The notes under the pieces: generated by a model
What the model was told of the DNA's origin: nothing
The model's input: only the letters and a program-made list of their open reading frames with translations
Databases searched by the model: none
Program-made: the position numbers and the translations under genes
Part shown: piece after piece, positions 1 through 58,648 of the stretch
Layout of the letters: the number at the start of each line of letters is the position of its first letter
Position numbering within the stretch: the first letter of the stretch is position 1
Origin: an uncultured Gammaproteobacteria bacterium
GTDB taxonomy: Bacteria > Patescibacteriota > Microgenomatia > UBA10105 > UBA927
NCBI GenBank assembly: GCA_964527425.1
Contig: CAZGOA010000001.1
Coordinates: forward strand, 20,842 to 84,841
Reading direction: 5' to 3'
Length of the DNA stretch: 64,000 nucleotides

Positions 1-741
1 TTTTTCTACTTGAGGATATATTTCGTGTAATGTTTGTTGAAAACGGGAAGTACCCCACGTGTCTGCAATATGACCAATATCGCTGTGTAAATTGGGTGCA
101 AAATGCTTATACTGCTTCCACAAAAATGATGGTGTTGTTACAAAATATCCTAAATTCCATGCATGTTTTCCACTTTCCAGATATCTTTTTGCAGTTTCTT
201 TGTCAGGACGATATTGAAAATTCTTAAATGAATGAAATGAAATATTATTTAATGTTTTTTTAACTTCTCCATATTCTATCCATCCCAAATTTTCACTGGC
301 AAAGCGCGGTTTTTGACCAATAAATACTATTGTATTAGGAGATTTTGTAACTATTTCACCTGCTCTAGTAAGTAATTCTCTAAATAATGATTCTTTTTTT
401 ACTAAATGATCACTCCATAAAATTGCCATTGGTTCAGAAGGAGCAATTTTATTAAGAATAGCAGTTAATAATCCAACTGCAGGTCCTACATCTCTCATTG
501 CAGGTTCTCCGATAATATGTGCTGAAGGTAATTTTTCAAGTTGCTCTTTAACCAGATCCACATACTGAGCCCCGGTAGATACAAACATATGATCCCAATT
601 AAAATCAGGCTGAAGACGTTCAGCTGCTAATTGAAGTGTAGATTTATTTCCAAAAATTTTCTCAAATTGTTTCGGAGAATTCTTTCGCGATAAAGGCCAT
701 AGCCTAGTTCCTGCACCACCTGCAAAAATTATACAATTCAT
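1..741 (-). CDS. mannose-1-phosphate guanylyltransferase (nucleotidyltransferase domain); partial, runs off window start
   Basis: Reverse-strand translation from ATG at 741 reads 'MNCIIFAGGAGTRLWPLSRKNSPKQF...', the classic 'GGxGTRLWPLS' sugar-1-P nucleotidyltransferase signature. No stop before position 1, so it is absent from the ORF track. Confidence 0.75.
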   Translation of the reverse strand, partial: MNCIIFAGGAGTRLWPLSRKNSPKQFEKIFGNKSTLQLAAERLQPDFNWDHMFVSTGAQYVDLVKEQLEKLPSAHIIGEPAMRDVGPAVGLLTAILNKIAPSEPMAILWSDHLVKKESLFRELLTRAGEIVTKSPNTIVFIGQKPRFASENLGWIEYGEVKKTLNNISFHSFKNFQYRPDKETAKRYLESGKHAWNLGYFVTTPSFLWKQYKHFAPNLHSDIGHIADTWGTSRFQQTLHEIYPQVEK

Positions 742-795
742 AATTAATTTAGAATTAACGATATCTAATCACGATACAAACAATATAGATAGTAT

Positions 796-1935
796 TTATC
801 TACGTTCTTGTATGTTTTCAGTGTTATATTCTTTTAATACATTTGCAACAAATAATGAAATTTGTTTCTTAAATCTCACTATATCAAACTGACTCGCCTG
901 TTTTCTACACGCAACTGGATCATATGTTTCAAGGTGAAATTGAGATAACGCGTTAACTAAACACTCCACAGTCTGCTCTTCAAATACTTCCCCTGTCTTA
1001 CCTGGAATGATAATTTCTGCTATGCCACTTTTTTTGTAACACAATACTGGTTTCCCGGAGGCTTGAGCTTCTGCAGCAACTATTCCAAAATCCTCTTCCC
1101 CAGCAAACAAAAACGCTCTGCACTGTTGATAATATCGAGCTAATTCTTCTGTTGTCAATTTATTCCGTATAAATGTTACATTTTTGCCAGCTCTCTTAAT
1201 TAGCCGCTGAGCATCTTTTCCATCTCCAATGACAACTAAGGGAAGGTTAAGTTTTGTACAGGCATCAATTACTATATCAATTCGTTTATAAGACACAAGG
1301 CGAGATACAACTAAAAACGGTGCATGTTCAGTATTTGTTTTTTCTGCTAAAGGAAATGCTGACATAGTTACAGGTGGATAGATAACTGCATCGACTGTAC
1401 GCTTGTAAAATGACTCAATTCGATGAGACACTAAGTTTGATATAGCTATAAAGTAATCAGGCTTTTGCGCAGCATAAAAATCCCACTTTTTTAAAATGCT
1501 GTGTGATAAAGATAATACTATTTTTGATAACCAACTAAACCTACCAAGCCCGGGTTCTTGTTGATATGAGGTATATCCACTCCACAAATATCTGGTTGGT
1601 GTTAAACAATAACAAATATGTAACGTATGTGGTTTCGTAATAATCGTTTTTGCTTCTGCAGAAGTAATGCTTATAACCACATCAAACATATCAAAATTAA
1701 ACAATTCAAATCCAAGTGGAGTTAACCATGGAAATAACTCATGATGCCGTTTTGCACTAGGTATTCTTTGAAGAAAGGAGGTGTGGACTTTAAATACTTT
1801 TGCCCATGTAGCTTTTTGTTTATCATAAACAGCTGTATATAGTGGAGCATTTGGCCATACTTCATGCAATGCCAGTAATACTTGTTCTGCACCTCCAAAC
1901 TTATTTACTCGATCATATACAAGCGCTATTTTCAT
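796..1935 (-). CDS. glycosyltransferase family 4 (GT-B, retaining)
   Basis: C-terminal 'FLFAGEEDFGIVAAEAQASGKPVL...GIAEII' E-x7-E motif; 379 aa; ATGA overlap with the upstream gene. Confidence 0.8.
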   Translation of the reverse strand: MKIALVYDRVNKFGGAEQVLLALHEVWPNAPLYTAVYDKQKATWAKVFKVHTSFLQRIPSAKRHHELFPWLTPLGFELFNFDMFDVVISITSAEAKTIITKPHTLHICYCLTPTRYLWSGYTSYQQEPGLGRFSWLSKIVLSLSHSILKKWDFYAAQKPDYFIAISNLVSHRIESFYKRTVDAVIYPPVTMSAFPLAEKTNTEHAPFLVVSRLVSYKRIDIVIDACTKLNLPLVVIGDGKDAQRLIKRAGKNVTFIRNKLTTEELARYYQQCRAFLFAGEEDFGIVAAEAQASGKPVLCYKKSGIAEIIIPGKTGEVFEEQTVECLVNALSQFHLETYDPVACRKQASQFDIVRFKKQISLFVANVLKEYNTENIQERR

Positions 1936-3068
1936 AGAAAGCTGTTTTTCAACTCACCAACTTTGTTATAAATATCCAATGTCTTTTGAGCCATGGATTT
2001 CCAAGAAAATTTTTGAAAATACAATTGTTTTTCCTTTGCATCTTTCCATGGAGTTTTTTTACCTTTTTTAATAACATCTTTAATTTTTTCAAACCAATCA
2101 TGAGCACTATCCGGATCGAAAAATGCGGTAGAAGAAGGTAAAAGCTCTCTAAACACTGGGATATCTGAAACCAATATCTCACAATCTGCAGCAAGAGCTT
2201 CCAGTAAAGGAAGTGCGAATCCTTCTGCTTTTGAAGGAGAAAGTGTTATTAATGCTTTACTAAAATATTGAGCCAGCTGAATATCAGTAACATTTTCTGG
2301 AAACAAAAAGAGGTCGTCGAGATCTTTTGAGTGTACTTCGCTAACAAACTTCCTGAAAAAGTAATCATGAGGACCTATCATCATGATTTTCAAAGGAGCA
2401 ATGCTTTGAACTGGTATTTCTTTTTTAAATAATATGGCAATATCAATTAATAATTTTACGTTTTTATGAGGATACGTGTTGCCCACATATAAGATATATG
2501 GAACATGAATTAATTCGTTATTAGTTGAAACATTAAAAAAAACCTCATCAACTCCCTCTAATGTAACACTAATCGGATTTTTAATATTCCAGGTTTGAAT
2601 TACATCATGTTTTGTTGTTTCAGAAACCGCAATAATATGTTTAGACTTTTTTAAACCATTCTTTAATACAATTTGATATCCTATTTTTTTTAACCAGTAC
2701 AACGGGTAGGGCAACGTAGTCGCCTTGCCTGTATTAATTCTTAATATAGTTAGATCATGGATTGTTGTGATTATTGAATGGGAATAAAACAGTGGCACGG
2801 TAAAATATGGTACATGCAATATATCCAGTTTTTCACGGTAGTAAATTATTGGCAGTTCAAGTTGTTCTCGCAGTGTATGCCAGCGAGCACAAACATAATG
2901 AACACGCCAATTTGATTTGGGCAATTCAAATGGAAAAACTGTATCGTTAAGTACATACAATATATATTCGTTCTTTTTATCTATATTGATTAGCTCAACA
3001 ATAAGATGACGAATATAACGACCTACACCTGTTTCATTTATAAGTCGTGCATCAATTCCAATTTTCAT
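1932..3068 (-). CDS. glycosyltransferase family 4
   Basis: 'KAEGFALPLLEALAADCEILVSDIPVFRELL' GT4 C-domain motif; N-terminus 'MKIGIDARLINETGVGRY'. Confidence 0.8.
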   Translation of the reverse strand: MKIGIDARLINETGVGRYIRHLIVELINIDKKNEYILYVLNDTVFPFELPKSNWRVHYVCARWHTLREQLELPIIYYREKLDILHVPYFTVPLFYSHSIITTIHDLTILRINTGKATTLPYPLYWLKKIGYQIVLKNGLKKSKHIIAVSETTKHDVIQTWNIKNPISVTLEGVDEVFFNVSTNNELIHVPYILYVGNTYPHKNVKLLIDIAILFKKEIPVQSIAPLKIMMIGPHDYFFRKFVSEVHSKDLDDLFLFPENVTDIQLAQYFSKALITLSPSKAEGFALPLLEALAADCEILVSDIPVFRELLPSSTAFFDPDSAHDWFEKIKDVIKKGKKTPWKDAKEKQLYFQKFSWKSMAQKTLDIYNKVGELKNSFL

Positions 3069-3076
3069 ACAAACGT

Positions 3077-3979
3077 TTATAAGCCGAACTTTTTTACTAT
3101 AAAAAGTCTCATATTAATGATTGTTATTACAAATATTGTTAACAACGCAGAATATTTATTTTGATAATGTTTCTTATAAAATAATTTCATCGTTGAATAA
3201 AAATATTCTTTTGTTTTTTTTCTTGTTTCGAGGTTACTATTATTTCTGCCACTTTGCTTTTTTTTATGAAGTACCTTAGCTAAAGGCTCATACCATATCT
3301 CCCATCCATTTTCTTTTATTCTAAATGCCCAATCTAAGTCTTCACCATACATAAAAAACGCTTCATCTAGTACTCCCACCTGATCTATTACTTCTTTTCT
3401 AACCATAAAAAATCCACCACTAATCGCATCAACTTGATGAGCTGAATTCATTTGTTTATACCACTGGTGATACTGACTAAACATACTGCTATGAGGAAAT
3501 AAAGACTCCATACCCACAAAGTAACTGAAAGATGCCCATGGAGTTGGAAAACCACGATGACAGGCTGGATCTATATTTCCATTAGGAAGAAATAACTTAC
3601 TCCCCACCACCCCAATCTTTGATGAAGAATATAACTTTTTAAGGCAAACTTGTATTGCATCAGATTGTATTTCTGTATCAGAATTGAGTAATAACACTGT
3701 CTTTCCTAAAGCAATAGCTAAACCTTTATTATTGCCTGCCGAAAATCCATAATTATTATCAAGTGCAAGAATCCTTATCCAACTCTTATTGGCAGTGTAT
3801 TCATTAACTGAAGTCAAAAATTCTACACTGTCATCAGAAGATCCATTATCTACAATTATTATTTCCCATAAATCAGTGTTTTTTTTTGAATGAATAACAC
3901 TCTTTAAACACTCCAGAGTTAACTCTTTAGTATTATAATTTACAATAATAATCGACAACTCAAGATTTTTTTGACTCAT
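3077..3979 (-). CDS. glycosyltransferase family 2
   Basis: 'LSIIIVNYNTKELTLECLKSV...IIIVDNGSSDDS' and 'LLNSDTEI' DxD motifs. Confidence 0.8.
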   Translation of the reverse strand: MSQKNLELSIIIVNYNTKELTLECLKSVIHSKKNTDLWEIIIVDNGSSDDSVEFLTSVNEYTANKSWIRILALDNNYGFSAGNNKGLAIALGKTVLLLNSDTEIQSDAIQVCLKKLYSSSKIGVVGSKLFLPNGNIDPACHRGFPTPWASFSYFVGMESLFPHSSMFSQYHQWYKQMNSAHQVDAISGGFFMVRKEVIDQVGVLDEAFFMYGEDLDWAFRIKENGWEIWYEPLAKVLHKKKQSGRNNSNLETRKKTKEYFYSTMKLFYKKHYQNKYSALLTIFVITIINMRLFIVKKFGL

Positions 3980-5168
3980 ATTTTTTCCAAATAGCTTCTT
4001 GTATATCTGCTATATGTGACCAACTATATTTTTTTTCTACTATTTGCCTAGCGTTTCGTGTTATTTTTTTGACATTCACCGAATCATTACATAATGTTTG
4101 TATATTACCTATCCACTCATTTGTTGTATCTCCAATTAAAATTGAATGATTATGCTTAACATCTAATCCTTCAATTCCTTTTGTAGTCGAAATAACTGGA
4201 ACTCCTGCTGCCATTGCTTCTAAAATTTTATATTTAGTACCACCACCTATTGCTATTGGAGCAAATGACATATGTGCTTTTCTCAATACATCACGAATAT
4301 CATCTACATTTTCTGTTAACGTAACAGATGATGAGAGATATTTTTTGAACGCTTGTGGAAAATGTTGACCAACTAACTCAAGTGAAGCTTTTGGATAATT
4401 TTTTGAAATAACCGGCCAATATAATCGTAATAACGATTTAACAGCGTCTTGATTTTGAATCCATCTGAAATTGCCAATAAATACTGCATGAAAATCTTTC
4501 GGTATGACATTATTAGGCAAAAATTCAAACCAAATATCATCTACCCCATTGGGAACAACAGTTACATTATTAAATCCTTTACTGTTAATATATGCTTTAT
4601 CTGATAACGATACAGTAATTATTTGATCTGCATTTTCCCAAATGGTTTGTTCCCATTTTTTTATTTTATGCACATCATTTCGAAGAAAAGACTTCATTAA
4701 AGGTAACTTAAATCGTTGAATATAACCTTCATAAATCCTATGTTCAATATTATGTTCACTAACAATAAGAGGAAGATCTAATTGGGGTAATCCAGTAAAT
4801 ACATATCCAGGTTCAATATGTACTACATTAATCGATTCCTCACTGATTATCTGAGCAATACGTTTTTGGGCCATAGTATGATGATATGTTGCGTGTAAGA
4901 GTGATTTATTGGTAAATAACGATTTTGTTATATAACCAGGTTGCCATGCTGTTCCTCTCAGAATCGTTTCAATCCGATGGCAGAAAGATAATTCTTTACA
5001 GAATTTAGTTTCTTCCTCTGTCCGAATATACGATATTAGGGTAATGTTATGATGTTCTGATAGCCTTTTTAAGAGATTATAAAGACGTACCTGACCTCCC
5101 GAATACAACGGGAAGGGTAGTACTGCTGAAACAACAAGAATATTCATAGGTACATTAATTTGAAGCAC
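3960..5168 (-). CDS. glycosyltransferase family 4
   Basis: 'GGGTKYKILEAMAAGVPVISTTKGIEGL' GT4 C-terminal motif; 402 aa. Confidence 0.8.
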   Translation of the reverse strand: MLQINVPMNILVVSAVLPFPLYSGGQVRLYNLLKRLSEHHNITLISYIRTEEETKFCKELSFCHRIETILRGTAWQPGYITKSLFTNKSLLHATYHHTMAQKRIAQIISEESINVVHIEPGYVFTGLPQLDLPLIVSEHNIEHRIYEGYIQRFKLPLMKSFLRNDVHKIKKWEQTIWENADQIITVSLSDKAYINSKGFNNVTVVPNGVDDIWFEFLPNNVIPKDFHAVFIGNFRWIQNQDAVKSLLRLYWPVISKNYPKASLELVGQHFPQAFKKYLSSSVTLTENVDDIRDVLRKAHMSFAPIAIGGGTKYKILEAMAAGVPVISTTKGIEGLDVKHNHSILIGDTTNEWIGNIQTLCNDSVNVKKITRNARQIVEKKYSWSHIADIQEAIWKKYESKKS

Positions 5169-6663
5169 TATTTGGTTTTGTTAAATCAATAATCGCAAAT
5201 GTATCATTTCGAACAATAACTTCGTACTCTTCACTTAAAGCCTTAGTTTCTCCATCTGCATCAGTAGGAGATACGGTAACATAATGGGTTGCTCCCAGTT
5301 TAATTTTTTCTTCAATATCAAATCCAATAGGCCAACCTTGACGTTTAGTTTGATAAAGAAATGTTGTGTCACCATTGTACGGAGCTATTACTTTTGCATC
5401 CGGAGGTAATAAAGAATCTGCAACCTTTCCTGCTTCAACTATTTCAGGTCGGTTTATCCAATAAAATCCTCGAATTTCAAACCAGGAAAATGCCACAGTA
5501 AAGAGCACTATGAAAAGTAACACTATTGAGTTGCGGAGTTTAGCTATGAATGATCTTGGACTTATAAGATGTTCAATACCAAATCCTAAACATAAACTAA
5601 TTACAGGTAAAATTAACTGCTGGTAATAATCATGTTGCACATTTCCTCTTGCTATTACGATAAAAAACAATAGACTACCAAATAATAACGAATATACTAT
5701 CACCCATTTTTTTTGAATTGATAGTATTCCCAAAATAAATAGTGCTATCCCCCAATACCCTAATATTAATTTTGAAACTCGTTCAGCAAACAGCCAATGA
5801 AACCATGCACCTTTAAAGCGAAGATTTCCTTCATTGTATAACCAATTTGAAACCGGAATTCCTTCTGGAAAGAATACTATCCACTGTCTCCATACATAAA
5901 GAGGCACTATAGCTATGACAAAAAAGATTCCTAATAACACTGTAGATGTTAATACTTTTCTTGTAAAAGAACGATTTAACAATGGAAAAGCTGAAACAAT
6001 ATTCCATACACTCGTTATAAAAAGCAAAGGAAGAGGAATTAATAAAAATACTGCAAAAGGCTTTACTAATAATGCAAATGCTGCACTAAACGTACTGACT
6101 ATGAGTAAAAAAAGTGCACTGACACCATTACTTTTTGTAGATTTTAAAGAAGCAAATAGAGCAAGCAGACTCAAAAAGACCATTAATGGCTCCGGTAATA
6201 TAGATCGGCCATAAAAAAAACTATATGGCAATACGGCATACATGAATGCACTTCCTAATCCCACAATTGAATTCTTTAATTGTTTCCCTATGTAAGCCAA
6301 CAATATTATTGTACCTATACTTGCAGCGATACTTGTAAGTCTGAGTGCCTGCTCAATACTAACTTGAGGCAACATAGTATATAACCCGTACGCTATACTT
6401 TGGTACAACGGAAACTCAACCATTCTCCATCCTTCTAGGTTGTTTTTACCCGATTGAATGTTCGACAAATCATCATATCTGGGTCTGAAAGGATCAAACC
6501 CAAGATCTCTAAAATTTCTCGCAACTGCTGCTGTATCAGCCTGTCTCCAACTATGCCAATCGGCAATAGGATTACTAAACTTATAACTACGCACACTAAC
6601 TCCTAATGCAACGATAACACCTAAGAATAATATAAATACATGTTTTTTTAGAAATTTCATCAT
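5155..6663 (-). CDS. polytopic membrane protein, GT-C-like (ArnT/PMT_2-like) with C-terminal soluble domain
   Basis: About 11 predicted TM helices. Loop motif 'HSWRQADTAAVARNF' follows TM1. C-terminal ~100 aa are hydrophilic. The track start at 6672 is TTG; ATG at 6663 gives 'MMKFLKK' and is the more likely start. Confidence 0.5.
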   Translation of the reverse strand: MMKFLKKHVFILFLGVIVALGVSVRSYKFSNPIADWHSWRQADTAAVARNFRDLGFDPFRPRYDDLSNIQSGKNNLEGWRMVEFPLYQSIAYGLYTMLPQVSIEQALRLTSIAASIGTIILLAYIGKQLKNSIVGLGSAFMYAVLPYSFFYGRSILPEPLMVFLSLLALFASLKSTKSNGVSALFLLIVSTFSAAFALLVKPFAVFLLIPLPLLFITSVWNIVSAFPLLNRSFTRKVLTSTVLLGIFFVIAIVPLYVWRQWIVFFPEGIPVSNWLYNEGNLRFKGAWFHWLFAERVSKLILGYWGIALFILGILSIQKKWVIVYSLLFGSLLFFIVIARGNVQHDYYQQLILPVISLCLGFGIEHLISPRSFIAKLRNSIVLLFIVLFTVAFSWFEIRGFYWINRPEIVEAGKVADSLLPPDAKVIAPYNGDTTFLYQTKRQGWPIGFDIEEKIKLGATHYVTVSPTDADGETKALSEEYEVIVRNDTFAIIDLTKPNSASN

Positions 6664-6696
6664 AGATAGCAATTCAAGATAACAATGGTAATTAAA

Positions 6697-9675
6697 TTAT
6701 TTGGGATTAACTTTCCCTTCCAATTGTTGTAATTTAAAATCTTCAAAAAGTAATAACGTCTTTTCTGTACCATATGGTTCTGGGTAGCCGAAAGCTGCTT
6801 CTATTGAATTTACTTGAGCGACATTATACGGTGATTGGCGAAACATATGCCATAAGGCATCATTTAATCCAGTAGGAAAAATCCAGGCCCGTCCAATCCG
6901 AATAGGTACATCGATAAATACAAACGTTCTTGTAAAATTTGGAGGGAAAAATCCTGTTCGTATTGATTTTAATGTTTGTTCTGTTACATATCCTGCAAAT
7001 TCCCATTCTTTTTCAATTCGTTTGAATTCAATAGTATTCCACCATATACAACTCACTATAAGAATAATTGAACCTATCTTTAATACCCATGACATACGCG
7101 ACTGAAACAATCGAGTAACAACTAAGCCTGCCAACATAACAATAAATACTGAAGGCAGCAGTGCATATCTTTCAGAGGCAGCACCTAATCCAATGAACGG
7201 TATAAGTGAGATAAAAATACTTGCCACTAAGCCCCATACCATACGCCTTTTAAGCAAATAGACTTTATATTTCCATACAGTAAACGACAGAAATGCTACT
7301 GCTCCCAGCCCGATAAACGTGAGTGTTTGAACGTATTGTCTCATCATTTCTCTTGCACTAAATCCAATCTCTATTGCTCTGGGTCCGACAATAATTGCCA
7401 AGAGATAAGTCCCTATATTTCCAATACCATTTACCAATAATTTACTCAGGTTGTAACCGTAATCTCCACTCGGTGCTACTGCTCCACTATACATACGTAT
7501 TATCCAATAGGCAGGAATTAATAATAATAACGGCCATTTAGTTTTCCTTTGATAAATAAGCCAATCAAATAACACAATTAATGCTGGGCCTATTATTACC
7601 GTTTCCCATGAACCCATTGCCAATAATAGAGTAAATGTACCCAGTCCCAATTTATATTTCTCCCATTTTGCACTCCGATCTATTAAAAATATGTTCATAG
7701 ATAGTAATAAAAACATAACCGCAAGCAGACTGCTTTGACCTGATATCCAAATGATATTTTCATGATGGACTGCGAGCACTGCAAAACAAATAGTAAGTAA
7801 CCCTGCAATGAATCGATTTACCCCAACTTTCCTCATGAATAAAAAGGTTAAAACAGAAATAACAAAGAATAAGAAAATTGATGCTAAATGATAGGCTTGA
7901 GGCATTAACCAAAAAACAGAAAATAATGAAAAATACCATAATTTAGGTATGGGTCTATAGAAGAAACCTTGAGCATTTGTAAAGTAAGCCCCAATATCTG
8001 CAGTTGAAGTTTCAGCTGCCCATCTCAACCAGGTAAAATCATCACCTATAAAGTAATAATTCAATATTGTTCCAAAGAATAAAAACATTCCGATTGCCAA
8101 ATATGAAGCAACTACAAATTTATTTGTAAAAAATTTATACAGTACCGAAAAGTATCCCTGTTTCATTTCATGTTTTGACAATAGTGCCATGGCGATACCA
8201 AGCATCATCCATAACGGAAAGGCTACTTTTGAAGCTTCAAAAACATCGATTAAGATAGCATTTGCACTTAAGCCAACAATACCTGCAAATAAACCGATAA
8301 CAAACGATTTTTCAAATGGTTCGAGTAAATCTTTTTTTCTCCAAAACCATACAAACGCATACAATAATATCCCTAAAAATGATATTGTACCCAAAATACC
8401 AGTTTCTCCTAACATTCGGTGATAGTTTCCATCTGCTGCTAAATTGAGACTTGAATATCCACTTCCTGTAAAAATGTTGCGTTTAAACGCAGCTATTGCT
8501 CTAGGCCATTGGCCTTGAAAACGCGTAGTTATAGAAATGTCAAGTACAAATGCTTTTTGGATTAAATAACTACCAGAAATAGTTGCAACTTCACCTTTTC
8601 CTGCAACTAATTCTTTTTTGTTTATAAATTCTACTTCATCAATTGGAGCAGTTGATGGTGTCACCCCTTGAGAAGGTACATTAATAAATCCACTACCCTT
8701 AGGTAAATTTTCTACATCAGGTTCACTGATTGGTTCTAATACTGCTTTCCCGCCTTCAACTTTTTCTAATGTACCAATAGGTTTTCCAGTTGATAAATCT
8801 ACGACTACATCATTAAATCTCAATGTTTTTAAAAACCGTTCTGAAGCACCACTAACAAAATTAACCATTATAATACTAGCTATTATCACTGGAACGATTA
8901 GCCAGCGTTTTTTTTGCCACCACAGCATGACCGAAATAGTTACCAAATATACCCCAAAAGAAACTCGTGATGCTGTAAGCAACAACAATATAAATGACGC
9001 AATTGTAATTGCCAACAATAAAACCTTGAACATCAATCGTTTAGTACCAAATATTAAGCTGCCCAATATTGGAATGGTTAACACCAAATATGCTGCTAAA
9101 TCATAATGCCCAGCAAATGTTGACATTATTCGTGCAGTAGGCGGGAGACGCAATGGAACACCTTTTGCAAACTCTTCATTCATTGTCGAAAAGGCCGGCA
9201 AGCCATAATATTTTTGACCTAATCCATATATGACAATAAAAATTCCAGTAACAGCAATTACACAAACAAGTATTGGTAATAGTTTTCTATTTCTTGAAAC
9301 TGCAGCAAAGGCAAGAAAAAACAACAGCATATACTCAATACGCCGGAGATAATGAAGTATTGCTATATGAGGCAATACATTAGGTAACTGAGGGAAAATA
9401 AATAAAATAGCAAGTATTACTGAAATTAAACCTACTCCCCAGAAAGTTACAATAGGAATACTTAGAGGAGTTTTTAATGATTGTTTCTTAAAAATAACTA
9501 ACATCCCCAAAATAGCTGCTGCTAAAAACACCAAAAAATCTTCTAACCGGATATATACCCATGTGCCAACAATATCTAAAATAGGAAGTTTTGGGTACAA
9601 CGGTATAAATGCTAAGAAGAATATCAGCATTCCGGGGACAAGCCACTTAATCAAGAATTGCCAGAGCTTTTCCAT
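6697..9675 (-). CDS. 992-aa membrane protein: N-terminal Wzy_C (O-antigen ligase/polymerase/PglL-like) domain fused to a second polytopic GT-C-like region
   Basis: 'LLLTASRVSFGVYLV' and 'GSGYSSLNLAADGNYHRMLGETGILGTISFLG' match the Wzy_C signature (R...GxG...H...GxxG). A large extracytoplasmic loop is followed by about 12 further TM helices with a 'DDFTWLRWA' loop. Confidence 0.6.
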   Translation of the reverse strand: MEKLWQFLIKWLVPGMLIFFLAFIPLYPKLPILDIVGTWVYIRLEDFLVFLAAAILGMLVIFKKQSLKTPLSIPIVTFWGVGLISVILAILFIFPQLPNVLPHIAILHYLRRIEYMLLFFLAFAAVSRNRKLLPILVCVIAVTGIFIVIYGLGQKYYGLPAFSTMNEEFAKGVPLRLPPTARIMSTFAGHYDLAAYLVLTIPILGSLIFGTKRLMFKVLLLAITIASFILLLLTASRVSFGVYLVTISVMLWWQKKRWLIVPVIIASIIMVNFVSGASERFLKTLRFNDVVVDLSTGKPIGTLEKVEGGKAVLEPISEPDVENLPKGSGFINVPSQGVTPSTAPIDEVEFINKKELVAGKGEVATISGSYLIQKAFVLDISITTRFQGQWPRAIAAFKRNIFTGSGYSSLNLAADGNYHRMLGETGILGTISFLGILLYAFVWFWRKKDLLEPFEKSFVIGLFAGIVGLSANAILIDVFEASKVAFPLWMMLGIAMALLSKHEMKQGYFSVLYKFFTNKFVVASYLAIGMFLFFGTILNYYFIGDDFTWLRWAAETSTADIGAYFTNAQGFFYRPIPKLWYFSLFSVFWLMPQAYHLASIFLFFVISVLTFLFMRKVGVNRFIAGLLTICFAVLAVHHENIIWISGQSSLLAVMFLLLSMNIFLIDRSAKWEKYKLGLGTFTLLLAMGSWETVIIGPALIVLFDWLIYQRKTKWPLLLLIPAYWIIRMYSGAVAPSGDYGYNLSKLLVNGIGNIGTYLLAIIVGPRAIEIGFSAREMMRQYVQTLTFIGLGAVAFLSFTVWKYKVYLLKRRMVWGLVASIFISLIPFIGLGAASERYALLPSVFIVMLAGLVVTRLFQSRMSWVLKIGSIILIVSCIWWNTIEFKRIEKEWEFAGYVTEQTLKSIRTGFFPPNFTRTFVFIDVPIRIGRAWIFPTGLNDALWHMFRQSPYNVAQVNSIEAAFGYPEPYGTEKTLLLFEDFKLQQLEGKVNPK

Positions 9676-10513
9676 AAACTGCCGAGAGGTCTCGGTCTCT
9701 TATTATGCCACAAATACCCAATACAAACCACGCTTTAAGCTTTAACATGTATACTAAAAGCTTAGTTTCCAGTATAGACTTATGTTTCTTATAAAAATAG
9801 AGAAGACCTTTATAAATATTTATAACAGGTTCCCTTCTATTTTCTGAACTAGCTGCACCCGTATGAATAAACTGGGCTTTAGGAGTAAACCATGTAAGAA
9901 AGCCCATATTTTTTGCACGATACAGTAAATCAACCTCTTCCATGTACATAAATATCGACTCATCAAACCCTCCTACTTTTAAGAAATCGCTTTTACGGAC
10001 CATGATACAAGCCCCCGAAATCCAATCAACTTGCCTTTCTTTATTAGGAGAATATCGAGAAAGATGTAACTGGTCTCCTTTTAAAAACAACATCAGAGCT
10101 ATGATTAATAATGAATAAAATGGCCCACATGACTGCTGAGGAGTTTTGTCTTCATTAAATAACTTTCCCCCAACAAAAGATTTTGGTTTTCTTGATAAGT
10201 ATTCAAAAAGTGTCTCTATACCTTTATCTAAAACTTCGCAGTCGGAGTTAAGAAAAAGCACGTATTCTCCCTTAGCTAGTTGAACTCCCTTGTTATTTGC
10301 CATTCCAAAACCTATATTTTTCTTGTTAAAAACAGACTCTACTTGAGGATATTTTTTTTTAATTAATTCTACAGACCCATCTGTAGAATTGTTATCTATG
10401 ACAATAATTTCATACTTAATTGATGAATTTTTTAGTGATGCACAAACAGATCCAAGACACCTATCCAATAACGCTTTTGTATTAAAGCTAAGAATAATTA
10501 TAGAAAGCTTCAT
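9647..10513 (-). CDS. glycosyltransferase family 2
   Basis: 'LSIIILSFNTKALLDRCLGSV...IIVIDNNSTDGS' and 'FLNSDCEV'. Confidence 0.8.
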   Translation of the reverse strand: MKLSIIILSFNTKALLDRCLGSVCASLKNSSIKYEIIVIDNNSTDGSVELIKKKYPQVESVFNKKNIGFGMANNKGVQLAKGEYVLFLNSDCEVLDKGIETLFEYLSRKPKSFVGGKLFNEDKTPQQSCGPFYSLLIIALMLFLKGDQLHLSRYSPNKERQVDWISGACIMVRKSDFLKVGGFDESIFMYMEEVDLLYRAKNMGFLTWFTPKAQFIHTGAASSENRREPVINIYKGLLYFYKKHKSILETKLLVYMLKLKAWFVLGICGIIRDRDLSAVYGKALAILD

Positions 10514-10520
10514 TATAGAT

Positions 10521-11135
10521 CTATTGAAACAAACGAGAAAATTTGAGGGTATATCGTAAATCTGTTGATCTTTTTTTTATTTCTTTAGCGGGAACACCTC
10601 CCACAACACTATATTCATCTACATCTTTGGTTACTACAGCTCCGGATGCGATAACAGCACCTTTTTTAATAGTTACACCAGGTAAAATTGTGACACGCGA
10701 ACCTATAACAACATAATCTTCAATTTTGACTGGTGCTCCAATTTCTGCAAAATAAGGATCATCAATATCATGCTCCATACTATATATTCTTACTTCACCT
10801 GCTATTGAAACGTTATTTCCAATTTGTATGGATCTCTGTGGCGGATTAATAAAATCCTTTAAATACCTTGCCATTTTATTTTTGTAAGAGGAAGTATGAT
10901 TATCAGACCAAGTTCGTTTAAATCTGCCATCTAGAAACGCATCATTACCGATAATAGTATTTGAACCAATTTCGATTCCACTGGGTAGATTAAATCGAGC
11001 CAACCAATGTATTGATGAGTCACGACCGATCTTTATTCTAAAAATATGCCTATAAAGAAATAAACGTATAGTATGACTCGGAATAATTCCAGTTAAGGTT
11101 GCAAGATAAACCCAAAAATCAATAAAAAATCTCAT
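10521..11135 (-). CDS. sugar O-/N-acetyltransferase, left-handed beta-helix (hexapeptide repeat)
   Basis: '[46 protein letters not shown]' hexapeptide repeats. Confidence 0.75.
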
Positions 11136-11138
11136 AGA

Positions 11139-12266
11139 TTATAACTCTCCTCTACCAACTTGTTCTAATATATCCAATGTTTTTTTTGCTGCACTATCCC
11201 AGCTAAATAAATCTACTCGTTCAAGACCAATTTCTATTCTTCTTCTTCCAGCTGGCGTTTGTTTTTCAAGTAACGCCTTTTTTATTCCTGCAGCAATATC
11301 TTCTGTATCTTCTGGCTTAATCATCACTCCTGCATCACCAGCTATTTCAGGTAAACTTGACACATTACTCACGACAATAGGAATTCCATAAGCCATAGCC
11401 TCTAGAACTGGCAAACCAAATCCTTCATATAAACTAGGTAATACAAAACATGCTCCTTGCTTGTACAGCTCAGGAAGATGTTCATCTGGCACAAAATCAA
11501 GGAATTTGACAGAGGATTCAACATTATTTTTTTTAGGTGAATCTAATATTTCTTCATATAACCAACCCTTTTTTCCTACTATGACTAACTCATATTCTTT
11601 AAAATCAGGCAATTGTTTTATCAGAGAGAATGCTTCAATAAGTTTGCTAAAATTTTTTCGCGGCTGAAGTGTTCCTACAGAAAGAATATATGGTTTATGA
11701 AGATTATAAACTTCTTGAACTGAATATTTTTTTATTGTGGTAGTCATACGAAACCCCGGATATGTAACAACTATACGAGATGATGGAATATTATATGCTT
11801 TAATTATAGCATTGCGGCTGAATTCACTTATAGTGAATACAGCTTTTGCTCGTTTTACGCTATATTCTGTCCAGTGTACAAGTTGATACAAATCCTTTTT
11901 TTTAAATAATCCCGGATACTCAAGATATGACATATCCATAATCGACATCACGCGAGGAATAGTAAGAAAACGAGGAATATAATGCGTCGGAGAAAATATG
12001 ACATCTGGTTTTTGAGGAGATTTCATTATTCCCATGGGCAAGCCAATAAACGTCCACAAAGAACGGGGTTTTAAAATAATATATTTCCACCAAGATGTTT
12101 CTAATGGCAAATCTTCAAGAGGATTTGTAGGAAGATATACTGTTACGTTGGATGTCTGATTTTTTTTCATTAAATCATAAAGACCATTAAGTGTCTCATA
12201 GGCATAAGAACCTATGCCTACTCGATTACGCACATTCGCTTCATAACCATCTATTGCAATATTCAT
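11139..12266 (-). CDS. glycosyltransferase family 4
   Basis: 'YEGFGLPVLEAMAYGIPIVVSNVSSLPEIAGDAG'. Confidence 0.8.
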   Translation of the reverse strand: MNIAIDGYEANVRNRVGIGSYAYETLNGLYDLMKKNQTSNVTVYLPTNPLEDLPLETSWWKYIILKPRSLWTFIGLPMGIMKSPQKPDVIFSPTHYIPRFLTIPRVMSIMDMSYLEYPGLFKKKDLYQLVHWTEYSVKRAKAVFTISEFSRNAIIKAYNIPSSRIVVTYPGFRMTTTIKKYSVQEVYNLHKPYILSVGTLQPRKNFSKLIEAFSLIKQLPDFKEYELVIVGKKGWLYEEILDSPKKNNVESSVKFLDFVPDEHLPELYKQGACFVLPSLYEGFGLPVLEAMAYGIPIVVSNVSSLPEIAGDAGVMIKPEDTEDIAAGIKKALLEKQTPAGRRRIEIGLERVDLFSWDSAAKKTLDILEQVGRGEL

Positions 12267-12874
12267 ACAGTAAACCCAGGATATATAACCTTTAATTTAT
12301 CGATTGAAACTCCAAATATTGTATTCATATCTCTTTTTGTCGCCTCAGAATCACATAAAAATATTCCACATTCATCAATTGCCCGATTCAATCTTCGTTT
12401 TTGTGTAGAAACAATATCTGCTTTATATATAAATGACCAAGGGTTAAATGAAATTCTTTGAGCTGTTTCATAAGGGTGTTTATAGACTATTAAATCATGA
12501 ATAGTTGTTATTCCTTTTGCAGTTTTCAGTGGTGGCTGACTCCAATCACTACTCCAGAATATATCTATATTTCCTATAAGTCGCTCTATAGAGAGAATAT
12601 GCAACCTATTCCAAAGAATGTCGAGTAACAATGGAGGAAACGGAAATAATCGCAACTGAATATTCTTATGAGTTTTTTGAAGTGTAGTTACATAATCCTT
12701 AATACGTTTTTGTTGTCTTAATGAACTTCCAAATAAGATATATTCATTTGTAGTATCTATCTTAATAAGTGCTGCAACTAACTCTTCAACATATCTTGCA
12801 ACACCAGTTCCGTTGTATACAATTTGACTAATATCTATACCAATTTTCATACTATTACTAACTACTATAGCCAT
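12263..12874 (-). CDS. GT4 N-terminal-domain-only protein (truncated/split glycosyltransferase)
   Basis: 'MKIGIDISQIVYNGTGVARYVEEL' resembles a GT4 N-domain start. The ORF ends '...KLKVIYPGFTV', exactly where the downstream full GT4's N-domain ends ('RIVVTYPGFRM'). It has no C-terminal E-x7-E domain. Confidence 0.5.
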   Translation of the reverse strand: MAIVVSNSMKIGIDISQIVYNGTGVARYVEELVAALIKIDTTNEYILFGSSLRQQKRIKDYVTTLQKTHKNIQLRLFPFPPLLLDILWNRLHILSIERLIGNIDIFWSSDWSQPPLKTAKGITTIHDLIVYKHPYETAQRISFNPWSFIYKADIVSTQKRRLNRAIDECGIFLCDSEATKRDMNTIFGVSIDKLKVIYPGFTV

Positions 12875-13850
12875 TAGGATGACTCTTATGCCATTTAAGA
12901 GCAGAAGAAATAATTGAGGGTAATTCTGAATGAGTTGGTTTCCATCCTAAATCTTTCATTATTTTCTGAGGATCGGCTACTAAAATATTCGGATCTCCAG
13001 CCCTTCTTTGCGATTCTATTACTGCAAAATCACTTCCGGTTTGTTTTTTAACTTCTGCAATTACTTCTCTATTGGTAACGCCTAAACCTGTTCCTATATT
13101 GTAGACATCAGATGCATGACCGTTTACTAACGCATCCAGCGCTAATAGATGAGCATCACACAAATCATCTAAATGAATATAATCTCTTTCACATGAACCA
13201 TCCCGTGTTTCATAGTCTGTTCCATATAAAGAGAATGTCTCTCTATATCCTAAAGCAGTTTTAATAGCCAGTGGAATCATATGAGGTTCGGGATCATGAT
13301 CTTCTCCATTTTCACCATCTTGCGAGGCACCTGAGGCATTAAAATACCGTAAAGCAATTGACTTAAATACATTCCTTCTATCATAAATATTTAACATTTG
13401 CTCCATACATAGTTTAGATAAGCCATAGGGAGATTCAGGGTTTTTTATATGGTCCTCAGGTATAGGTACTTTGGTTGGAATTCCATACACTGCCGCCGTT
13501 GATGAAAAAATCATATACTTCGTACCAAATGCTTCCATAGTTTCAAGTAAAGCAAGTGGTTCAATTAAATTATTGTTAAAATATTTAACAGGATTACGTA
13601 CAGATTCTTCTACTGATAAATACGCTGCAAAATGTATTACACCTTCAAATCGGTTTTTTTCAAAGAGACTTGTAAGTAGATCTTTATCTCCTGTAGAACC
13701 TTTTACGAAGTTAATCTCATTAGGAATTGAATCTTTATGTCCATGTTCTAGCGTATCAAGAACGGTTATAGTACTTTCAGAACGCTTTGCAAGCATTCTG
13801 ACCATGTGACTACCAATATATCCAGCTCCACCAGTAATTAATAGATTCAT
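12858..13850 (-). CDS. galE: UDP-glucose/UDP-GalNAc 4-epimerase
   Basis: 'MNLLITGGAGYIGSH', 'LRYFNASGA', 'YGxxK' (PYGLSK). Confidence 0.85.
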   Translation of the reverse strand: MNLLITGGAGYIGSHMVRMLAKRSESTITVLDTLEHGHKDSIPNEINFVKGSTGDKDLLTSLFEKNRFEGVIHFAAYLSVEESVRNPVKYFNNNLIEPLALLETMEAFGTKYMIFSSTAAVYGIPTKVPIPEDHIKNPESPYGLSKLCMEQMLNIYDRRNVFKSIALRYFNASGASQDGENGEDHDPEPHMIPLAIKTALGYRETFSLYGTDYETRDGSCERDYIHLDDLCDAHLLALDALVNGHASDVYNIGTGLGVTNREVIAEVKKQTGSDFAVIESQRRAGDPNILVADPQKIMKDLGWKPTHSELPSIISSALKWHKSHPNGYSS

Positions 13851-46924: not shown

Positions 46925-47731
46925 TTAGCCAGTATTTATTCTGAAGTTTAATTCAGGATCATATACCCATTTTCTTTTATTCCCGTGATCGTAGTATTTT
47001 AATAAACGCAAACGATAATAAATTGCTAGCGTATCTCGCAACATTCCCGCTACCGCTTTGGAAACACTTTTCTTATTTAAACTAGAAGTAATTTGTTGAA
47101 AATCTAACTCTATGGGTGATTCATATATCCGGTCGTATCCTAAATGCTTAGCAACAGCTAATATTTCTATATCAAAAGCAAATTCTTTCACTAATAATCG
47201 AGGAAGAACATCTTCAAGAACACTTCTCTTATATAACTTTAATCCAACCTGTGAATCACGAATGTTTAGACCAAATAATAATTTAATTAGTATTTGATAA
47301 CCAATGGATAATATTTTTCTGTACCAAGGGTATGATATTTTTGATACCGGATGACGCTTACTTCCAATTACAATATCTGCGTTATACCAACGCATATGTT
47401 CTATTAACATGGGAATACCTGATTCTCTAATCTCGCCTCCTGCATCAATAAACCCTATTACATCTCCTTTTGCTTTCGCCATACCATACCTAACTGCATA
47501 CCCTTTCCCTTTATTCGTTTTATATCCAATAATTTTTATTTTGGGTGTTCCTATTTTTTTAACTGCTTGCGCACTGTTGTCGGAAGATCCATCATCCACC
47601 ACAATTAATTCATAAGGAGTGTTAAATAATTCTAATTCTTGTACGATTCCTTGAATATTTTTTCGTATAGTTGATCCCTGATTGTATACTGGAACTATAA
47701 CTGAGAGAAGTTTTGGGAAATCACGATTCAT
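46925..47731 (-). CDS. GT2 polyprenyl-phosphate sugar synthase (DPM1/GtrB-like)
   Basis: 'LSVIVPVYNQ...ELIVVDDGSSDNS...NKGKGYAVRYGMAKAKGDVIGFIDAGG'. Confidence 0.65.
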   Translation of the reverse strand: MNRDFPKLLSVIVPVYNQGSTIRKNIQGIVQELELFNTPYELIVVDDGSSDNSAQAVKKIGTPKIKIIGYKTNKGKGYAVRYGMAKAKGDVIGFIDAGGEIRESGIPMLIEHMRWYNADIVIGSKRHPVSKISYPWYRKILSIGYQILIKLLFGLNIRDSQVGLKLYKRSVLEDVLPRLLVKEFAFDIEILAVAKHLGYDRIYESPIELDFQQITSSLNKKSVSKAVAGMLRDTLAIYYRLRLLKYYDHGNKRKWVYDPELNFRINTG

Positions 47732-48962
47732 GGATGTAGTATACTAAAATAGAAATAAACAAAAAAAGCGTTACTAATGCATTTGAAACGATTAGGGAAA
47801 AGAGTGTTGAGTGAAAAAGGAACATTCCTGCTATTTGAATACAAACTCCAATACATAATAACCTCCATACTCTTGTTCTATTTATAGCAAGGCACATCAT
47901 AGAAAGATAATTTATAGTTGTAATACATGCTAAAAATAATCCATATATTCCTAAATATTGTCCAGCATTAGCATAAGCACTACCAAATAATAATGCAGGA
48001 ATTACTGAAGATAACAATAAATAGATAACTGATATTCCTATACTTATACCTCCCACACCAAGTAGTCCGACTCGTATGATTGATGTATATTCTTTACCTG
48101 ATACTTTTCTCTCAGCTGCCATTGGAAACAACACAATAAGTAAGGCTGATGAAGCAAAAAATATAATTTTCCCAAATATATTGAGAGATGCATATATTCC
48201 AGCATCTTGTGCTTGAAAAAACATCTTTACTAACACTACATCAATGTTATAGAGCATAGTTATTGCAAGCGTTGTCATTAGTGTAGGAAAAGCAAATTGT
48301 ATAGCATCTTTTTTAAGGAGAGAATGATTTACCGGTTTTGCTTTTAGAACAAAACGTAAAGGAAACATTCCATATATTAGGGTAATAACATTACTAATAA
48401 TCATCCCCAATAAGGTAGTAGCTGCTCCAAAAGGCGCGAGTAAAAGACCTGTAATGAGCCGGGTTGCGATATTTATGATTTGATAAATGCTGGATGATAA
48501 AAACTTTTGATAACCATTGAGAATTCCATTGCCAGCGGTTATATAAAATGAAGATGCTACAATTCCAAATAGCCAAATAAAACTCATAAAATCTTGAATT
48601 CTTAGCATTTTTTGCAGAAACGGAATAAATGGAAGAAACAATAACCCACCGACTATACTACCTATGGTTAAATACTTTACTATACGCAGCAACAAACTTT
48701 TAGCTTGTCCTGTATTTCCTTTTGCTTTTATTTCTGAATAAAACTTTGTTAGTGATATTTGAACTACATTGGCTGGAACACTTAAAATGAATAAAAGTGA
48801 AAATAGTGCTGCAAATTCACCATATCGCTCTGGTCCCATAATTCTTCCAACAATAACATGGTATAAATATGCACCAATATTTACGACCATTGTACCGACA
48901 AACATTATTCCGCTGTTTATTAAGACTGTATTATTTGCAAGCAACAAGACATATTTTTTCAT
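47721..48962 (-). CDS. Wzx-type oligosaccharide/lipid-linked sugar flippase (Polysacc_synt, MOP superfamily)
   Basis: 'VGRIMGPERYGEFAALFSL' (RxLGxxxYG motif), about 12 TM helices, 413 aa. Confidence 0.7.
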   Translation of the reverse strand: MKKYVLLLANNTVLINSGIMFVGTMVVNIGAYLYHVIVGRIMGPERYGEFAALFSLLFILSVPANVVQISLTKFYSEIKAKGNTGQAKSLLLRIVKYLTIGSIVGGLLFLPFIPFLQKMLRIQDFMSFIWLFGIVASSFYITAGNGILNGYQKFLSSSIYQIINIATRLITGLLLAPFGAATTLLGMIISNVITLIYGMFPLRFVLKAKPVNHSLLKKDAIQFAFPTLMTTLAITMLYNIDVVLVKMFFQAQDAGIYASLNIFGKIIFFASSALLIVLFPMAAERKVSGKEYTSIIRVGLLGVGGISIGISVIYLLLSSVIPALLFGSAYANAGQYLGIYGLFLACITTINYLSMMCLAINRTRVWRLLCIGVCIQIAGMFLFHSTLFSLIVSNALVTLFLFISILVYYIHES

Positions 48963-49642
48963 ATAAATTTAAATTTAATAAGAGTCCAAACTGCCATAAT
49001 TCCATCTCTCCATGTTAATTTTTTTCCTTCTTCAAACTTTCTCCCAAAATACGATATTGGGACTTCATATATTTGATAGCCAGCTTTCAGTACTTTTGCT
49101 GTAAATTCTGGTTCAAAATCAAATCTGTTGCTTTGTAAGGTAAACGAATTAAGTACGCTTTTTCGAAATGCTTTGTACCCGGTTTCCATATCAGTAATAT
49201 TCGTGTTGTACAAAATGTTGGTTAAAAAGGTTACAAATTTGTTTCCTATTGTATAAAGATACATAGTAGATAAGTGTGATCCTAAAAACCTTGAACCATA
49301 TACCACTTGAACACGTTCATGAGTAAAAGGACTAATAAGTTGTTCATAGTCATTTGGTGTGTATTCAAAGTCAGCATCTTGAATAAGAATAATTTCACCT
49401 TTTGCATGTTTAAAACCTTCAATTAAGGCTGCACCTTTACCTCGGTTATATCGCTGCAAAATTACGTTATATTTATTTTTTACTTTTCTTAATAATTCTT
49501 GAGTACCATCGGTTGAACCATCATCAACAATAATAATTTCTTTTTTCCATCCTTTTATCTGCTGATTTTCCACTAATTTTAATAACTTAAGTATAGTATT
49601 CTTTTCGTTAAATACAGGAATGATAATTGATACAAGTTTCAT
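48959..49642 (-). CDS. GT2 polyprenyl-phosphate sugar synthase (DPM1/GtrB/CsbB-like)
   Basis: 'VSIIIPVFNEKNTI...IIIVDDGSTDGT...NRGKGAALIEGFKHAKGEIILIQDADFEYTP'. Confidence 0.75.
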   Translation of the reverse strand: MKLVSIIIPVFNEKNTILKLLKLVENQQIKGWKKEIIIVDDGSTDGTQELLRKVKNKYNVILQRYNRGKGAALIEGFKHAKGEIILIQDADFEYTPNDYEQLISPFTHERVQVVYGSRFLGSHLSTMYLYTIGNKFVTFLTNILYNTNITDMETGYKAFRKSVLNSFTLQSNRFDFEPEFTAKVLKAGYQIYEVPISYFGRKFEEGKKLTWRDGIMAVWTLIKFKFI

Positions 49643-58645: not shown

Positions 58646-58648
58646 ATA

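Follow-up and report, generated by a model that had tools for sequence, protein, structure and literature searches.

The 64,000-nucleotide window analyzed here (contig CAZGOA010000001.1 of assembly GCA_964527425.1) carries on its minus strand, at 6697..9675, one gene that joins two distinct lipid-donor glycosyltransferase (GT) folds, both under selection, in a class-wide Microgenomates operon starting from a phosphoglycosyltransferase (PGT). The N-terminal module has the 12-transmembrane (TM) fold of the O-antigen ligase WaaL, with an invariant Asp that appears to occupy the position of the ligase His, and the C-terminal module has a GT-C_A fold. We put at about even odds (roughly 0.5) the reading that the N module is a polymerase-type transferase of undecaprenyl diphosphate (Und-PP)-linked glycans, and that the GT-C module coupled to it decorates this glycan or attaches it. 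The protein probably builds a conserved cell-surface glycan of the Microgenomates.

One gene encodes two glycosyltransferase folds

The gene is a single open reading frame (ORF) with one ATG start, 992 codons plus a stop, and zero internal stops; at the base composition of the window a stop is expected about every 12 codons, and the chance of 992 open codons is P ~8e-37. The initial annotation had described just such an uninterrupted ORF, and the motifs that it quoted are all present in the translation, namely TASRVSFGVYLV at residues 234-245, GSGYSS at 404-409, GNYHRMLGETGILG at 416-429, and DDFTWLRWA at 545-553. Two independent public assemblies encode the 992-aa protein identically. The initial annotation had also recommended a structure prediction, and the AlphaFold2 (AF2) model of the entire protein is confident (predicted local distance difference test, pLDDT, 84; predicted template modeling score, pTM, 0.84). 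The predicted topology comprises 12 TM helices, a linker, and then 12-13 TM helices with an 83-aa alpha/beta end domain, in line with the second GT-C-like polytopic domain proposed at the outset.

Conservation was assessed in a species scan with one genome per GTDB species, which gave at least 590 confirmed stretches; the loci analyzed are the best 80. Over these 80 species loci, mean identity to the window protein reaches 49% in the N half and 31% in the C half and drops to 17% in residues 500-518, which are for this reason taken to act as a linker. The boundary between the modules is near residue 505-518, downstream of the position near 460 first suggested, and the C module is ∼475 aa long, where ∼530 aa had been assigned to the C-terminal part. 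Seventy residues are invariant over the 80 species. They are distributed across both halves, mostly in predicted outer loops and outer helix ends (AF2 helix order), and both halves are under selection. The parts of the protein are as follows.

6697..9675, minus strand: whole gene, bimodular polytopic glycosyltransferase of 992 aa, stop codon at 6697-6699 (full-length homologues and AF2 model)
8161..9675, minus strand: N module, residues 1-505, 12-TM WaaL/Wzy-type (GT-C_B) domain
8122..8160, minus strand: inter-module cytoplasmic linker, residues 506-518, nonconserved (17% mean identity) and K/R-rich
6949..8121, minus strand: membrane core of the C module, residues 519-909, GT-C_A fold
6700..6948, minus strand: C-terminal alpha/beta domain, residues 910-992, with the GRAWIFPTGLNDALWH motif (AF2 model)

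The N module has a WaaL fold with an Asp at the ligase His position

A Pfam scan of the N half returned Wzy_C (PF04932) alone, at 24.8 bits (E 2e-5) over residues 223-426. This score is under the PF04932 gathering score of 31.7 bits, the match contains an insertion of ∼80 residues, and E. coli WaaL reached 50 bits in the same scan. A precomputed PF04932 match is present on some of the homologues, and together these matches point to a relationship that is real but marginal. The NCBIfam scan gave an IctB match alone, far below threshold. The Wzy_C-type domain of the initial annotation is thus borne out at a subthreshold score and by the fold: the module shows the 12-TM architecture of WaaL, including the long outer loop near the C terminus, and its best structural match is an O-antigen ligase. 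Residues were placed by reference to E. coli K-12 WaaL and to a 32-sequence WaaL alignment. The conserved segments are the following.

9100..9207, minus strand: outer loop EL3, residues 157-192, YGLPAFSTMNEEFAKGVPLRLPPTARIMSTFAGHYD, the top-conserved stretch (71% mean identity)
8965..8976, minus strand: TASR motif, residues 234-237, in which R237 is the counterpart of E. coli WaaL R215, the first Und-PP-binding Arg
8425..8820, minus strand: large outer loop EL5, residues 286-417, poorly modeled in its proximal part and with its invariant residues in the distal part
8389..8433, minus strand: DGNYHRMLGETGILG, residues 415-429, with D415 invariant and Y418, R420, E424, G426, and G429 invariant or nearly so

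R182 in EL3 aligns with the invariant R161 of E. coli WaaL. A hidden Markov model (HMM) of the N half places LTASR237 on LTQTR215 of E. coli WaaL, and R237 is invariant in the 80 species. The distal part of EL5 holds the invariant residues D379, S381, T383, T384, R385, Q387, and W390 in a D-x-S-x-T-T-R-x-Q-x-x-W block, and by inspection of the motif (S-x-G-A-R288 in WaaL, S-x-[GT]-[AT]-R) R385 is the probable counterpart of WaaL R288. Two candidate Und-PP diphosphate-binding Args are present, the second (R385) being less certain than R237.

No conserved acceptor-activating His was found at the position of E. coli H338 (C. metallidurans H313); by the best register, invariant D415 is there instead. 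An ungapped profile-profile register scan has a single clear optimum that sets H338 on D415, with scores of +13.7 (close homologues) and +19.0 (80 species); all other registers score +1.4 or less. In the D415 register, G349 and G352 of E. coli WaaL coincide with G426 and G429. We considered H419 as the WaaL catalytic His, given its H-x4-E-x-G spacing, and rejected it, as its register scores -2.1 and -7.0. Residue 419 is variable, being His in 10 of the 80 species and Leu in 48.

In their shared clan, O-antigen ligases (GT121) combine two Und-PP-binding Args with an acceptor-activating His, and the SEDS and inverting Wzy-type polymerases (BP-Pols) have Asp or Glu at the His position (PMC10920833). 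The N module has D415 at that position, together with R237 and R385 on the outer face, where one or two Args are expected in inverting polymerases. On this criterion (PMC10920833), the N module combines a WaaL fold with a catalytic signature that groups it with the polymerases and SEDS enzymes of the clan. A polymerase-type reading is therefore favored over a WaaL- or PglL-type ligase or protein O-oligosaccharyltransferase (O-OTase), because the invariant D415 replaces the His. HMMs of each half found no paralogue of either among all of the window ORFs, and the N-half HMM found no stand-alone N-like paralogue in ∼1,500 ORFs of 85 related loci.

The C module belongs to a large GT-C family

The C module adopts the GT-C_A fold, which is that of PMT (GT39), ArnT (GT83), STT3/PglB/AglB (GT66), and GT53 enzymes, and three of its segments stand out.

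8017..8043, minus strand: DDFTWLRWA, residues 545-553, first outer loop of the C module, invariant in 80 species
7747..7767, minus strand: HHENIIW, residues 637-643, with E639 and W643 invariant
7165..7173, minus strand: ERY, residues 835-837, with R836 and Y837 invariant

The full set of C-module invariants comprises D545, D546, W549, W552, R574, E639, W643, Y723, R727, R836, and Y837. D545 and D546 come directly after TM1 of the module, in the first extracytoplasmic loop, and as acids they may serve in catalysis or bind metal; phosphate binding is a candidate role for R836. The DD loop is predicted by homology to face outward, as in all GT-C_A enzymes, and this orientation is also predicted because a 12-TM module of WaaL type has its C-terminal end on the cytoplasmic side and the linker is rich in K. 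Among further matches to the C-half profile, which include distant stand-alone relatives, D546 is kept in 26 of 26 and D545 in 25 of 26, the lone exception being a fusion fragment.

The profile searches proposed in the initial annotation gave different outcomes for the two halves. The N half has its subthreshold Wzy_C match, and the C half has no match to PMT_2 or to anything else in Pfam, NCBIfam, or PDB sequence searches; those against the PDB, run with the single protein and with a 121-sequence profile, returned nothing meaningful. Nine of 10 stand-alone C-like relatives likewise have no Pfam or NCBIfam match, and the tenth, a distant relative, has one weak PMT_2 match. The module has neither a WWDYG motif nor a MIR-sized loop and could be assigned to none of the named families PMT, PMT_2, STT3, and YfhO. 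When the C-half profile was compared with 1.84 billion cluster representatives, 44,155 matched at E<=1e-3, 8,641 at E<=1e-10, and 125 at E<=1e-30. The best 150 matches are ∼1000-aa fusions, fragments, and genuine stand-alone proteins (447-550 aa, each with an N terminus of its own), and the stand-alone proteins retain the DD, R574, E639, W643, and R836 positions. These searches indicate that the C module belongs to a large unnamed GT-C family in which the fusion is specific to one lineage. A distant stand-alone member (P0232, 22% identity, locus L088) lies beside type IV pilus/type II secretion ATPase and platform genes and a PilS-like kinase on a contig of 39% G+C, and from this locus other branches of the family may serve pilus-related glycosylation.

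The C-terminal alpha/beta domain is probably extracytoplasmic and glycan-binding. Its motif GRAWIFPTGLxDALWH (residues 928-943) resembles GRxxVFxRGxDxALWHxWQ, a motif repeated in the blades of PLL, a beta-propeller lectin from Photorhabdus (8q7u). The resemblance is not significant (E-value 3.9, single copy), and the motif might hint at sugar binding.

The fusion is the standard form within the Microgenomates

More than 2,000 clusters match the protein below E 1e-3, and the 120 homologues listed are the best of these matches; all 120 are 973-1013 aa long, with 47-91% identity and >=95% query coverage. In the best 80 loci, with 35-57% best-segment identity, the fusion is full length in 79, the exception being a locus cut by a contig end. 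Public annotations call the homologues "O-antigen ligase family protein" or "hypothetical protein". The initial annotation had regarded the fusion as nonstandard, which holds for the literature and for Pfam but not within the Microgenomates, where it is the standard form. The best 80 loci are all of Microgenomates type, and relatives are labeled Patescibacteria group, Woese-, Gottesman-, Levy-, or Roizmanbacteria. Many species-representative metagenome-assembled genomes that carry the fusion (among L007-L084; third-party annotation, TPA, co-assembly bins) are titled "uncultured Gammaproteobacteria"; these are probably mislabeled records, as the gene content and synteny are those of Microgenomates.

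The two modules also occur apart. In a more distant subfamily, the same operon (L091, 3406-6413) has separate N-like (531 aa) and C-like (470 aa) genes that overlap at a TGATG, and the N-like gene retains all of the N-module invariants. Several cluster representatives of the ∼470-aa C-like subfamily have independent Met starts. At L087 (6001-7482), a C-like protein of 30% identity is flanked by orthologues of the GT2 (38%) and the GT4 (35%) that lie upstream and downstream of the fusion; it adjoins an ABC exporter, and no N-like gene is present within 6 kb, which fits the N module being needed in the Wzy-type route only. We rejected L089 (1-3078) as an operon that has lost its N module, as the ORF that precedes its GT2 proved to be the last part of a different C-like protein, truncated where the contig begins or ends. 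That locus shows a second GT2 and C-only copy directly after another C-like protein.

A conserved operon surrounds the fusion

In the 80 loci the neighbors are on the same strand at fixed offsets. The features of the window that are needed here are listed below.

1..13850, minus strand: conserved operon of GalE-like, GT4 N-piece, GT4, hexapeptide acetyltransferase, GT2, fusion, PMT_2-like, GT4, GT2, GT4, GT4, and NTP_transferase genes
9647..10513, minus strand: upstream GT2 of 288 aa; its end and the start of the fusion share 29 nt (synteny in 75/80 loci)
5155..6672, minus strand: downstream PMT_2-like GT-C, 505 aa, a constant neighbor (syntenic in 78 of 80)
47721..49642, minus strand: a GT2 resembling dolichol-phosphate-mannose synthase (DPMS) and ArnC (48959-49642) that overlaps by 4 nt a Wzx-like MOP flippase, Polysacc_synt (47721-48962)

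On the upstream side, synteny holds for the GT4 N-piece in 63 of the 80 loci, the GT4 in 76, the hexapeptide acetyltransferase in 75, and the GT2 that overlaps the fusion start in 75; on the downstream side, it holds for the PMT_2-like GT-C (78/80), the GT4 (71/80), the GT2 (75/80), and a further GT4 (73/80). The NTP_transferase is truncated by the window edge, and the operon of relatives continues with Bac_transf and DUF4012. A ManC-like NTP_transferase occurs in 58 loci, a 211-aa Bac_transf PGT in 56, and DUF4012 in 48, to be compared with about 52 loci in which the downstream flank extends over 9.5 kb or more. The presence of Bac_transf implies that the intermediate is linked to Und-PP, which is the kind of donor that WaaL/Wzy enzymes use. 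The 660-aa DUF4012 protein closes the operon after Bac_transf (L007 20545-22527; 48 of the ∼52 loci whose flank is long enough). It consists of an N-terminal TM helix, a coiled coil, and a large extracellular domain, and a role in chain-length control or attachment is tentatively suggested.

The upstream GT2 was considered as a polyprenyl-phosphate-sugar synthase for the GT-C module and rejected; to judge by its relatives in the PDB, it is an ordinary GT-A enzyme of the sugar-to-sugar kind, with DPMS no more than a marginal match. A different GT2 of the window, the 227-aa protein at 48959-49642, matches DPMS (5mlz, E 7.7e-19) and ArnC (E 6e-15). Together with the flippase that it overlaps, it forms a GacI/GacK-like pair that could make and flip a polyprenyl-phosphate sugar for the GT-C enzymes of the window and, we infer, for the fusion. 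A search for DPMS-like GT2s across the 80 loci was dominated by cross-matches to other GT2s.

The 203-aa ORF at 12263-12874 (minus strand) holds a Glyco_transf_4 N-terminal domain only and precedes the full GT4 at 11139-12266 (minus strand). This half-size GT4 is kept in 63 of the 80 loci, and similar pairs of N and C half-GT4s occur in L003 and L005, which suggests that it is part of a stable split GT-B enzyme.

The window as a whole (∼32% G+C) is a near-unbroken array of glycan-synthesis genes, with many GT4s and GT2s, sugar-nucleotide epimerases and dehydratases, aminotransferase-like genes, acetyltransferases, a carbamoyltransferase, and a methyltransferase. About a dozen further large polytopic ORFs are present, some with weak PMT_2, PMT, YfhO, or AftD-GT-C matches and several with no Pfam match at all, an unusually dense set of putative GT-C enzymes within 64 kb. 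The polytopic ORFs lie at 5155-6672, 18430-22249, 23271-26330, 38449-41864, 44443-45783, 50653-52272, 54940-56589, 57020-60343, and 61724-63397. The plus-strand AT skew is +0.10 over window positions 6001-10000 and about -0.03 in the flanks, a jump in keeping with a very hydrophobic minus-strand product, whose Phe, Leu, and Ile codons are rich in T.

Proposed mechanism and competing explanations

We propose that the fusion is a ∼24-TM polypeptide with two different extracytoplasmic lipid-donor active sites that would serve one Microgenomates surface glycan. Judging from the operon content, the Bac_transf PGT would start an Und-PP-linked oligosaccharide, four to five GT4s, two GT2s, and the acetyltransferase would finish it in the cytoplasm, and a flippase encoded elsewhere would carry it across the membrane. 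The N module, placed by its fold, would then bind the Und-PP donor through R237 and R385 while D415 activates the acceptor hydroxyl, and would act as a glycan-to-glycan transferase, i.e., a repeat-unit polymerase. The C module, likewise placed by its fold and equipped with D545/D546, R574, E639, and R836, would use a polyprenyl-monophosphate-linked donor, either to decorate the nascent polymer with a side-chain sugar or to move the polymer to its final acceptor. Because the fusion occurs in hundreds of species and a sister clade has the TGATG-coupled adjacent genes, the two steps may be obligatorily coupled, probably in one complex that includes the PMT_2-like neighbor. A more specific version, in which the Wzy-like module polymerizes and the fused GT-C_A module, and not an LCP enzyme or WaaL, attaches the polymer to the final wall acceptor, is speculative, and we rate it as rather improbable. 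If true, the operon would define the principal envelope glycopolymer of the Microgenomates, and a new and very large family of GT-C "ligases" would start with the C module.

Several observations weigh against the polymerase-type assignment. No MOP-family flippase or Wzz-like gene occurs in the conserved operon of three annotated loci, and no Wzx homologue lies within ±10 kb of the fusion in the 80 loci, so the Wzx flippase and chain-length regulator of a polymerase cluster are not found in the same cluster; the sole Wzx-like MOP-family gene of the window, at 47721-48962, is 38 kb away from the fusion. The N module is conserved unusually well for a Wzy (49% mean identity), and the seven to eight cytoplasmic GTs suit a one-off ligated complex oligosaccharide as well as a large repeat unit. 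The alignment of the family with the 32-sequence WaaL alignment by hhalign is collinear, weak, and partial (residues 49-253 on WaaL 50-231, E 0.031), ending before the catalytic-His region, and hhalign against E. coli WaaL alone was unsuccessful; the His-to-Asp register derives from the ungapped profile scan and motif logic, not from structural superposition. For the C module, STT3 and AglB score nearly as high as PMT and ArnT, and the fold is compatible with either a phosphate-linked monosaccharide donor or a diphosphate- or phosphate-linked oligosaccharide donor. L087 is a single example, and a further split locus (L090, 3497-6497) is divided at an A6 run, where a sequencing or frameshift error is possible. 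The assignment comes from sequence and fold.

The main competing explanation is a coupled ligase of WadA type, in which the N module moves a finished Und-PP-glycan en bloc onto an acceptor that is itself a lipid or a glycan (for example, a glycolipid anchor or a second wall polymer), after the GT-C module has added an acceptor sugar from a polyprenyl-phosphate sugar, much as the GT25 of WadA completes the core before ligation. A bimodular ligase with an acceptor-finishing GT is a known design (PMC10920833; see also PMC9938171), the conserved operon has no Wzx or Wzz, the numerous cytoplasmic GTs suit a defined oligosaccharide, and the strong conservation of the N module suits a conserved acceptor. 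The top structural match of the N module is an O-antigen ligase as well, but this match does not discriminate between ligase and polymerase, because no polymerase of Wzy_C type is represented in the PDB. Against such a ligase, Asp replaces the acceptor-activating His by which GT121 is defined, residue 419 is variable, and L087 keeps its GT-C with no N module within 6 kb, beside an ABC exporter, whose route would still require a ligase. We therefore regard such a ligase as possible but doubtful. The artefactual reading, an assembly or frameshift join or a degenerate fusion with one half a catalytically dead scaffold, finds a footing in the separate calls for the two halves in L090; it is effectively refuted by the identical protein on two independent assemblies, by full length in 120 of 120 listed homologues and 79 of 80 loci, by the invariant polar residues retained in both halves, and by a single AF2 model that is confident overall. 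The halves are not separate genes split by a frameshift, an outcome that the initial annotation had named as fatal to the fusion.

A protein O-OTase would instead have a PglL/PilO/WsaB-type N module that glycosylates an S-layer protein or pilin, with the GT-C module extending or modifying the protein-linked glycan. Similarity to the Wzy_C family fits such an enzyme, as does the lineage: Patescibacteria are regarded as monoderm and as lacking lipopolysaccharide (LPS) and lipid A-core, and a PGT with GT4s and GT2s resembles the S-layer glycosylation clusters of Gram-positive bacteria. One distant stand-alone C-like protein does lie beside type IV pilus genes (L088), but it is just 22% identical and outside this operon. 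The His conserved in WaaL-type ligases is essential in PglL-type O-OTases too, and its position is Asp here. Three fully annotated loci show neither a pilin nor an S-layer gene in the conserved operon, with no systematic acceptor search made. An O-OTase role is thus quite unlikely, and less likely than the polymerase or ligase readings. The initial annotation had preferred an O-OTase or polymerase to lipid-A-core ligation; the window ORFs that were scanned include no lpx or waa genes, and that ligation remains unlikely, with the polymerase favored and the O-OTase less so.

Significance of the fusion

Both folds are already known; what stands out is their fusion and its occurrence throughout the Microgenomates, the His-to-Asp switch in a WaaL fold, and the unnamed GT-C family. 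In the PMC and bioRxiv literature searched, neither the joining of a WaaL/Wzy-type to a GT-C_A module nor the operon in Patescibacteria is described. The class-wide syntenic operon points to one conserved surface glycan and offers a concrete handle on the envelope of uncultured Microgenomates. The fusion and its TGATG-coupled split form act as a natural "Rosetta stone" that links a WaaL/Wzy-type Und-PP enzyme physically to a GT-C_A enzyme, which supports the idea that such pairs, e.g., WpsI and WpsJ, work as complexes. With its His-to-Asp change, the WaaL-like fold also puts to the test the rule by which ligases and polymerases are told apart. Finally, thousands of cluster representatives of the C-module family are unnamed in Pfam and NCBIfam, which leaves proteins annotated as "hypothetical" or, wrongly, as "O-antigen ligase".

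Comparison with known systems

Compared with WaaL (GT121; Cupriavidus metallidurans 7TPG/7TPJ and E. coli K-12), the N module of the fusion is only 16% identical and its Wzy_C score is subthreshold; it has an invariant Asp for the catalytic His, an extra loop insertion of ∼80 residues, and a second enzyme attached, and its host lineage is regarded as one without LPS and lipid A-core. We know of no polymerase of the Wzy/SEDS class that is fused to a GT-C_A enzyme. Relative to the Wzy-type inverting polymerases and SEDS proteins (clan GT-C1, PMC10920833), with which we compare it by catalytic signature and not by membership of a specific BP-Pol family, the operon has no Wzx/Wzz partner and the conservation is far above that usual for a Wzy.

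WadA of Brucella and Mesorhizobium is bimodular, GT25 plus GT121 (PMC10920833), and like the fusion it joins a WaaL-type module to a second glycosyltransferase for the same glycoconjugate. Its partner, however, is a soluble, nucleotide-sugar-dependent cytoplasmic GT25, whereas the partner in the fusion is a polytopic GT-C_A enzyme with a predicted outer-face active site, and WadA, unlike the N module, retains ligase chemistry and belongs to an LPS pathway. The pellicle pathway of L. lactis uses a separate polymerase, WpsI, and GT-C transferase, WpsJ (PMC9574508). There, a polymerase of lipid-linked oligosaccharide and then a GT-C enzyme work outside the membrane on one wall polysaccharide (PMC9574508); the functional logic that we propose for the fusion is of this kind, with no sequence relationship shown. 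WpsI and WpsJ differ in being separate proteins with an Und-P-linked donor, whereas the Bac_transf PGT of the fusion operon implies Und-PP. Set against ArnT, PMT, and the three-component GT-C side-chain transferases (GacL, CsdB, YfhO), the C module has no PMT, PMT_2, or YfhO match, no MIR domain, and no WWDYG motif, and its profile matches place it in a distinct and very large family of its own (8,641 cluster representatives at E<=1e-10).

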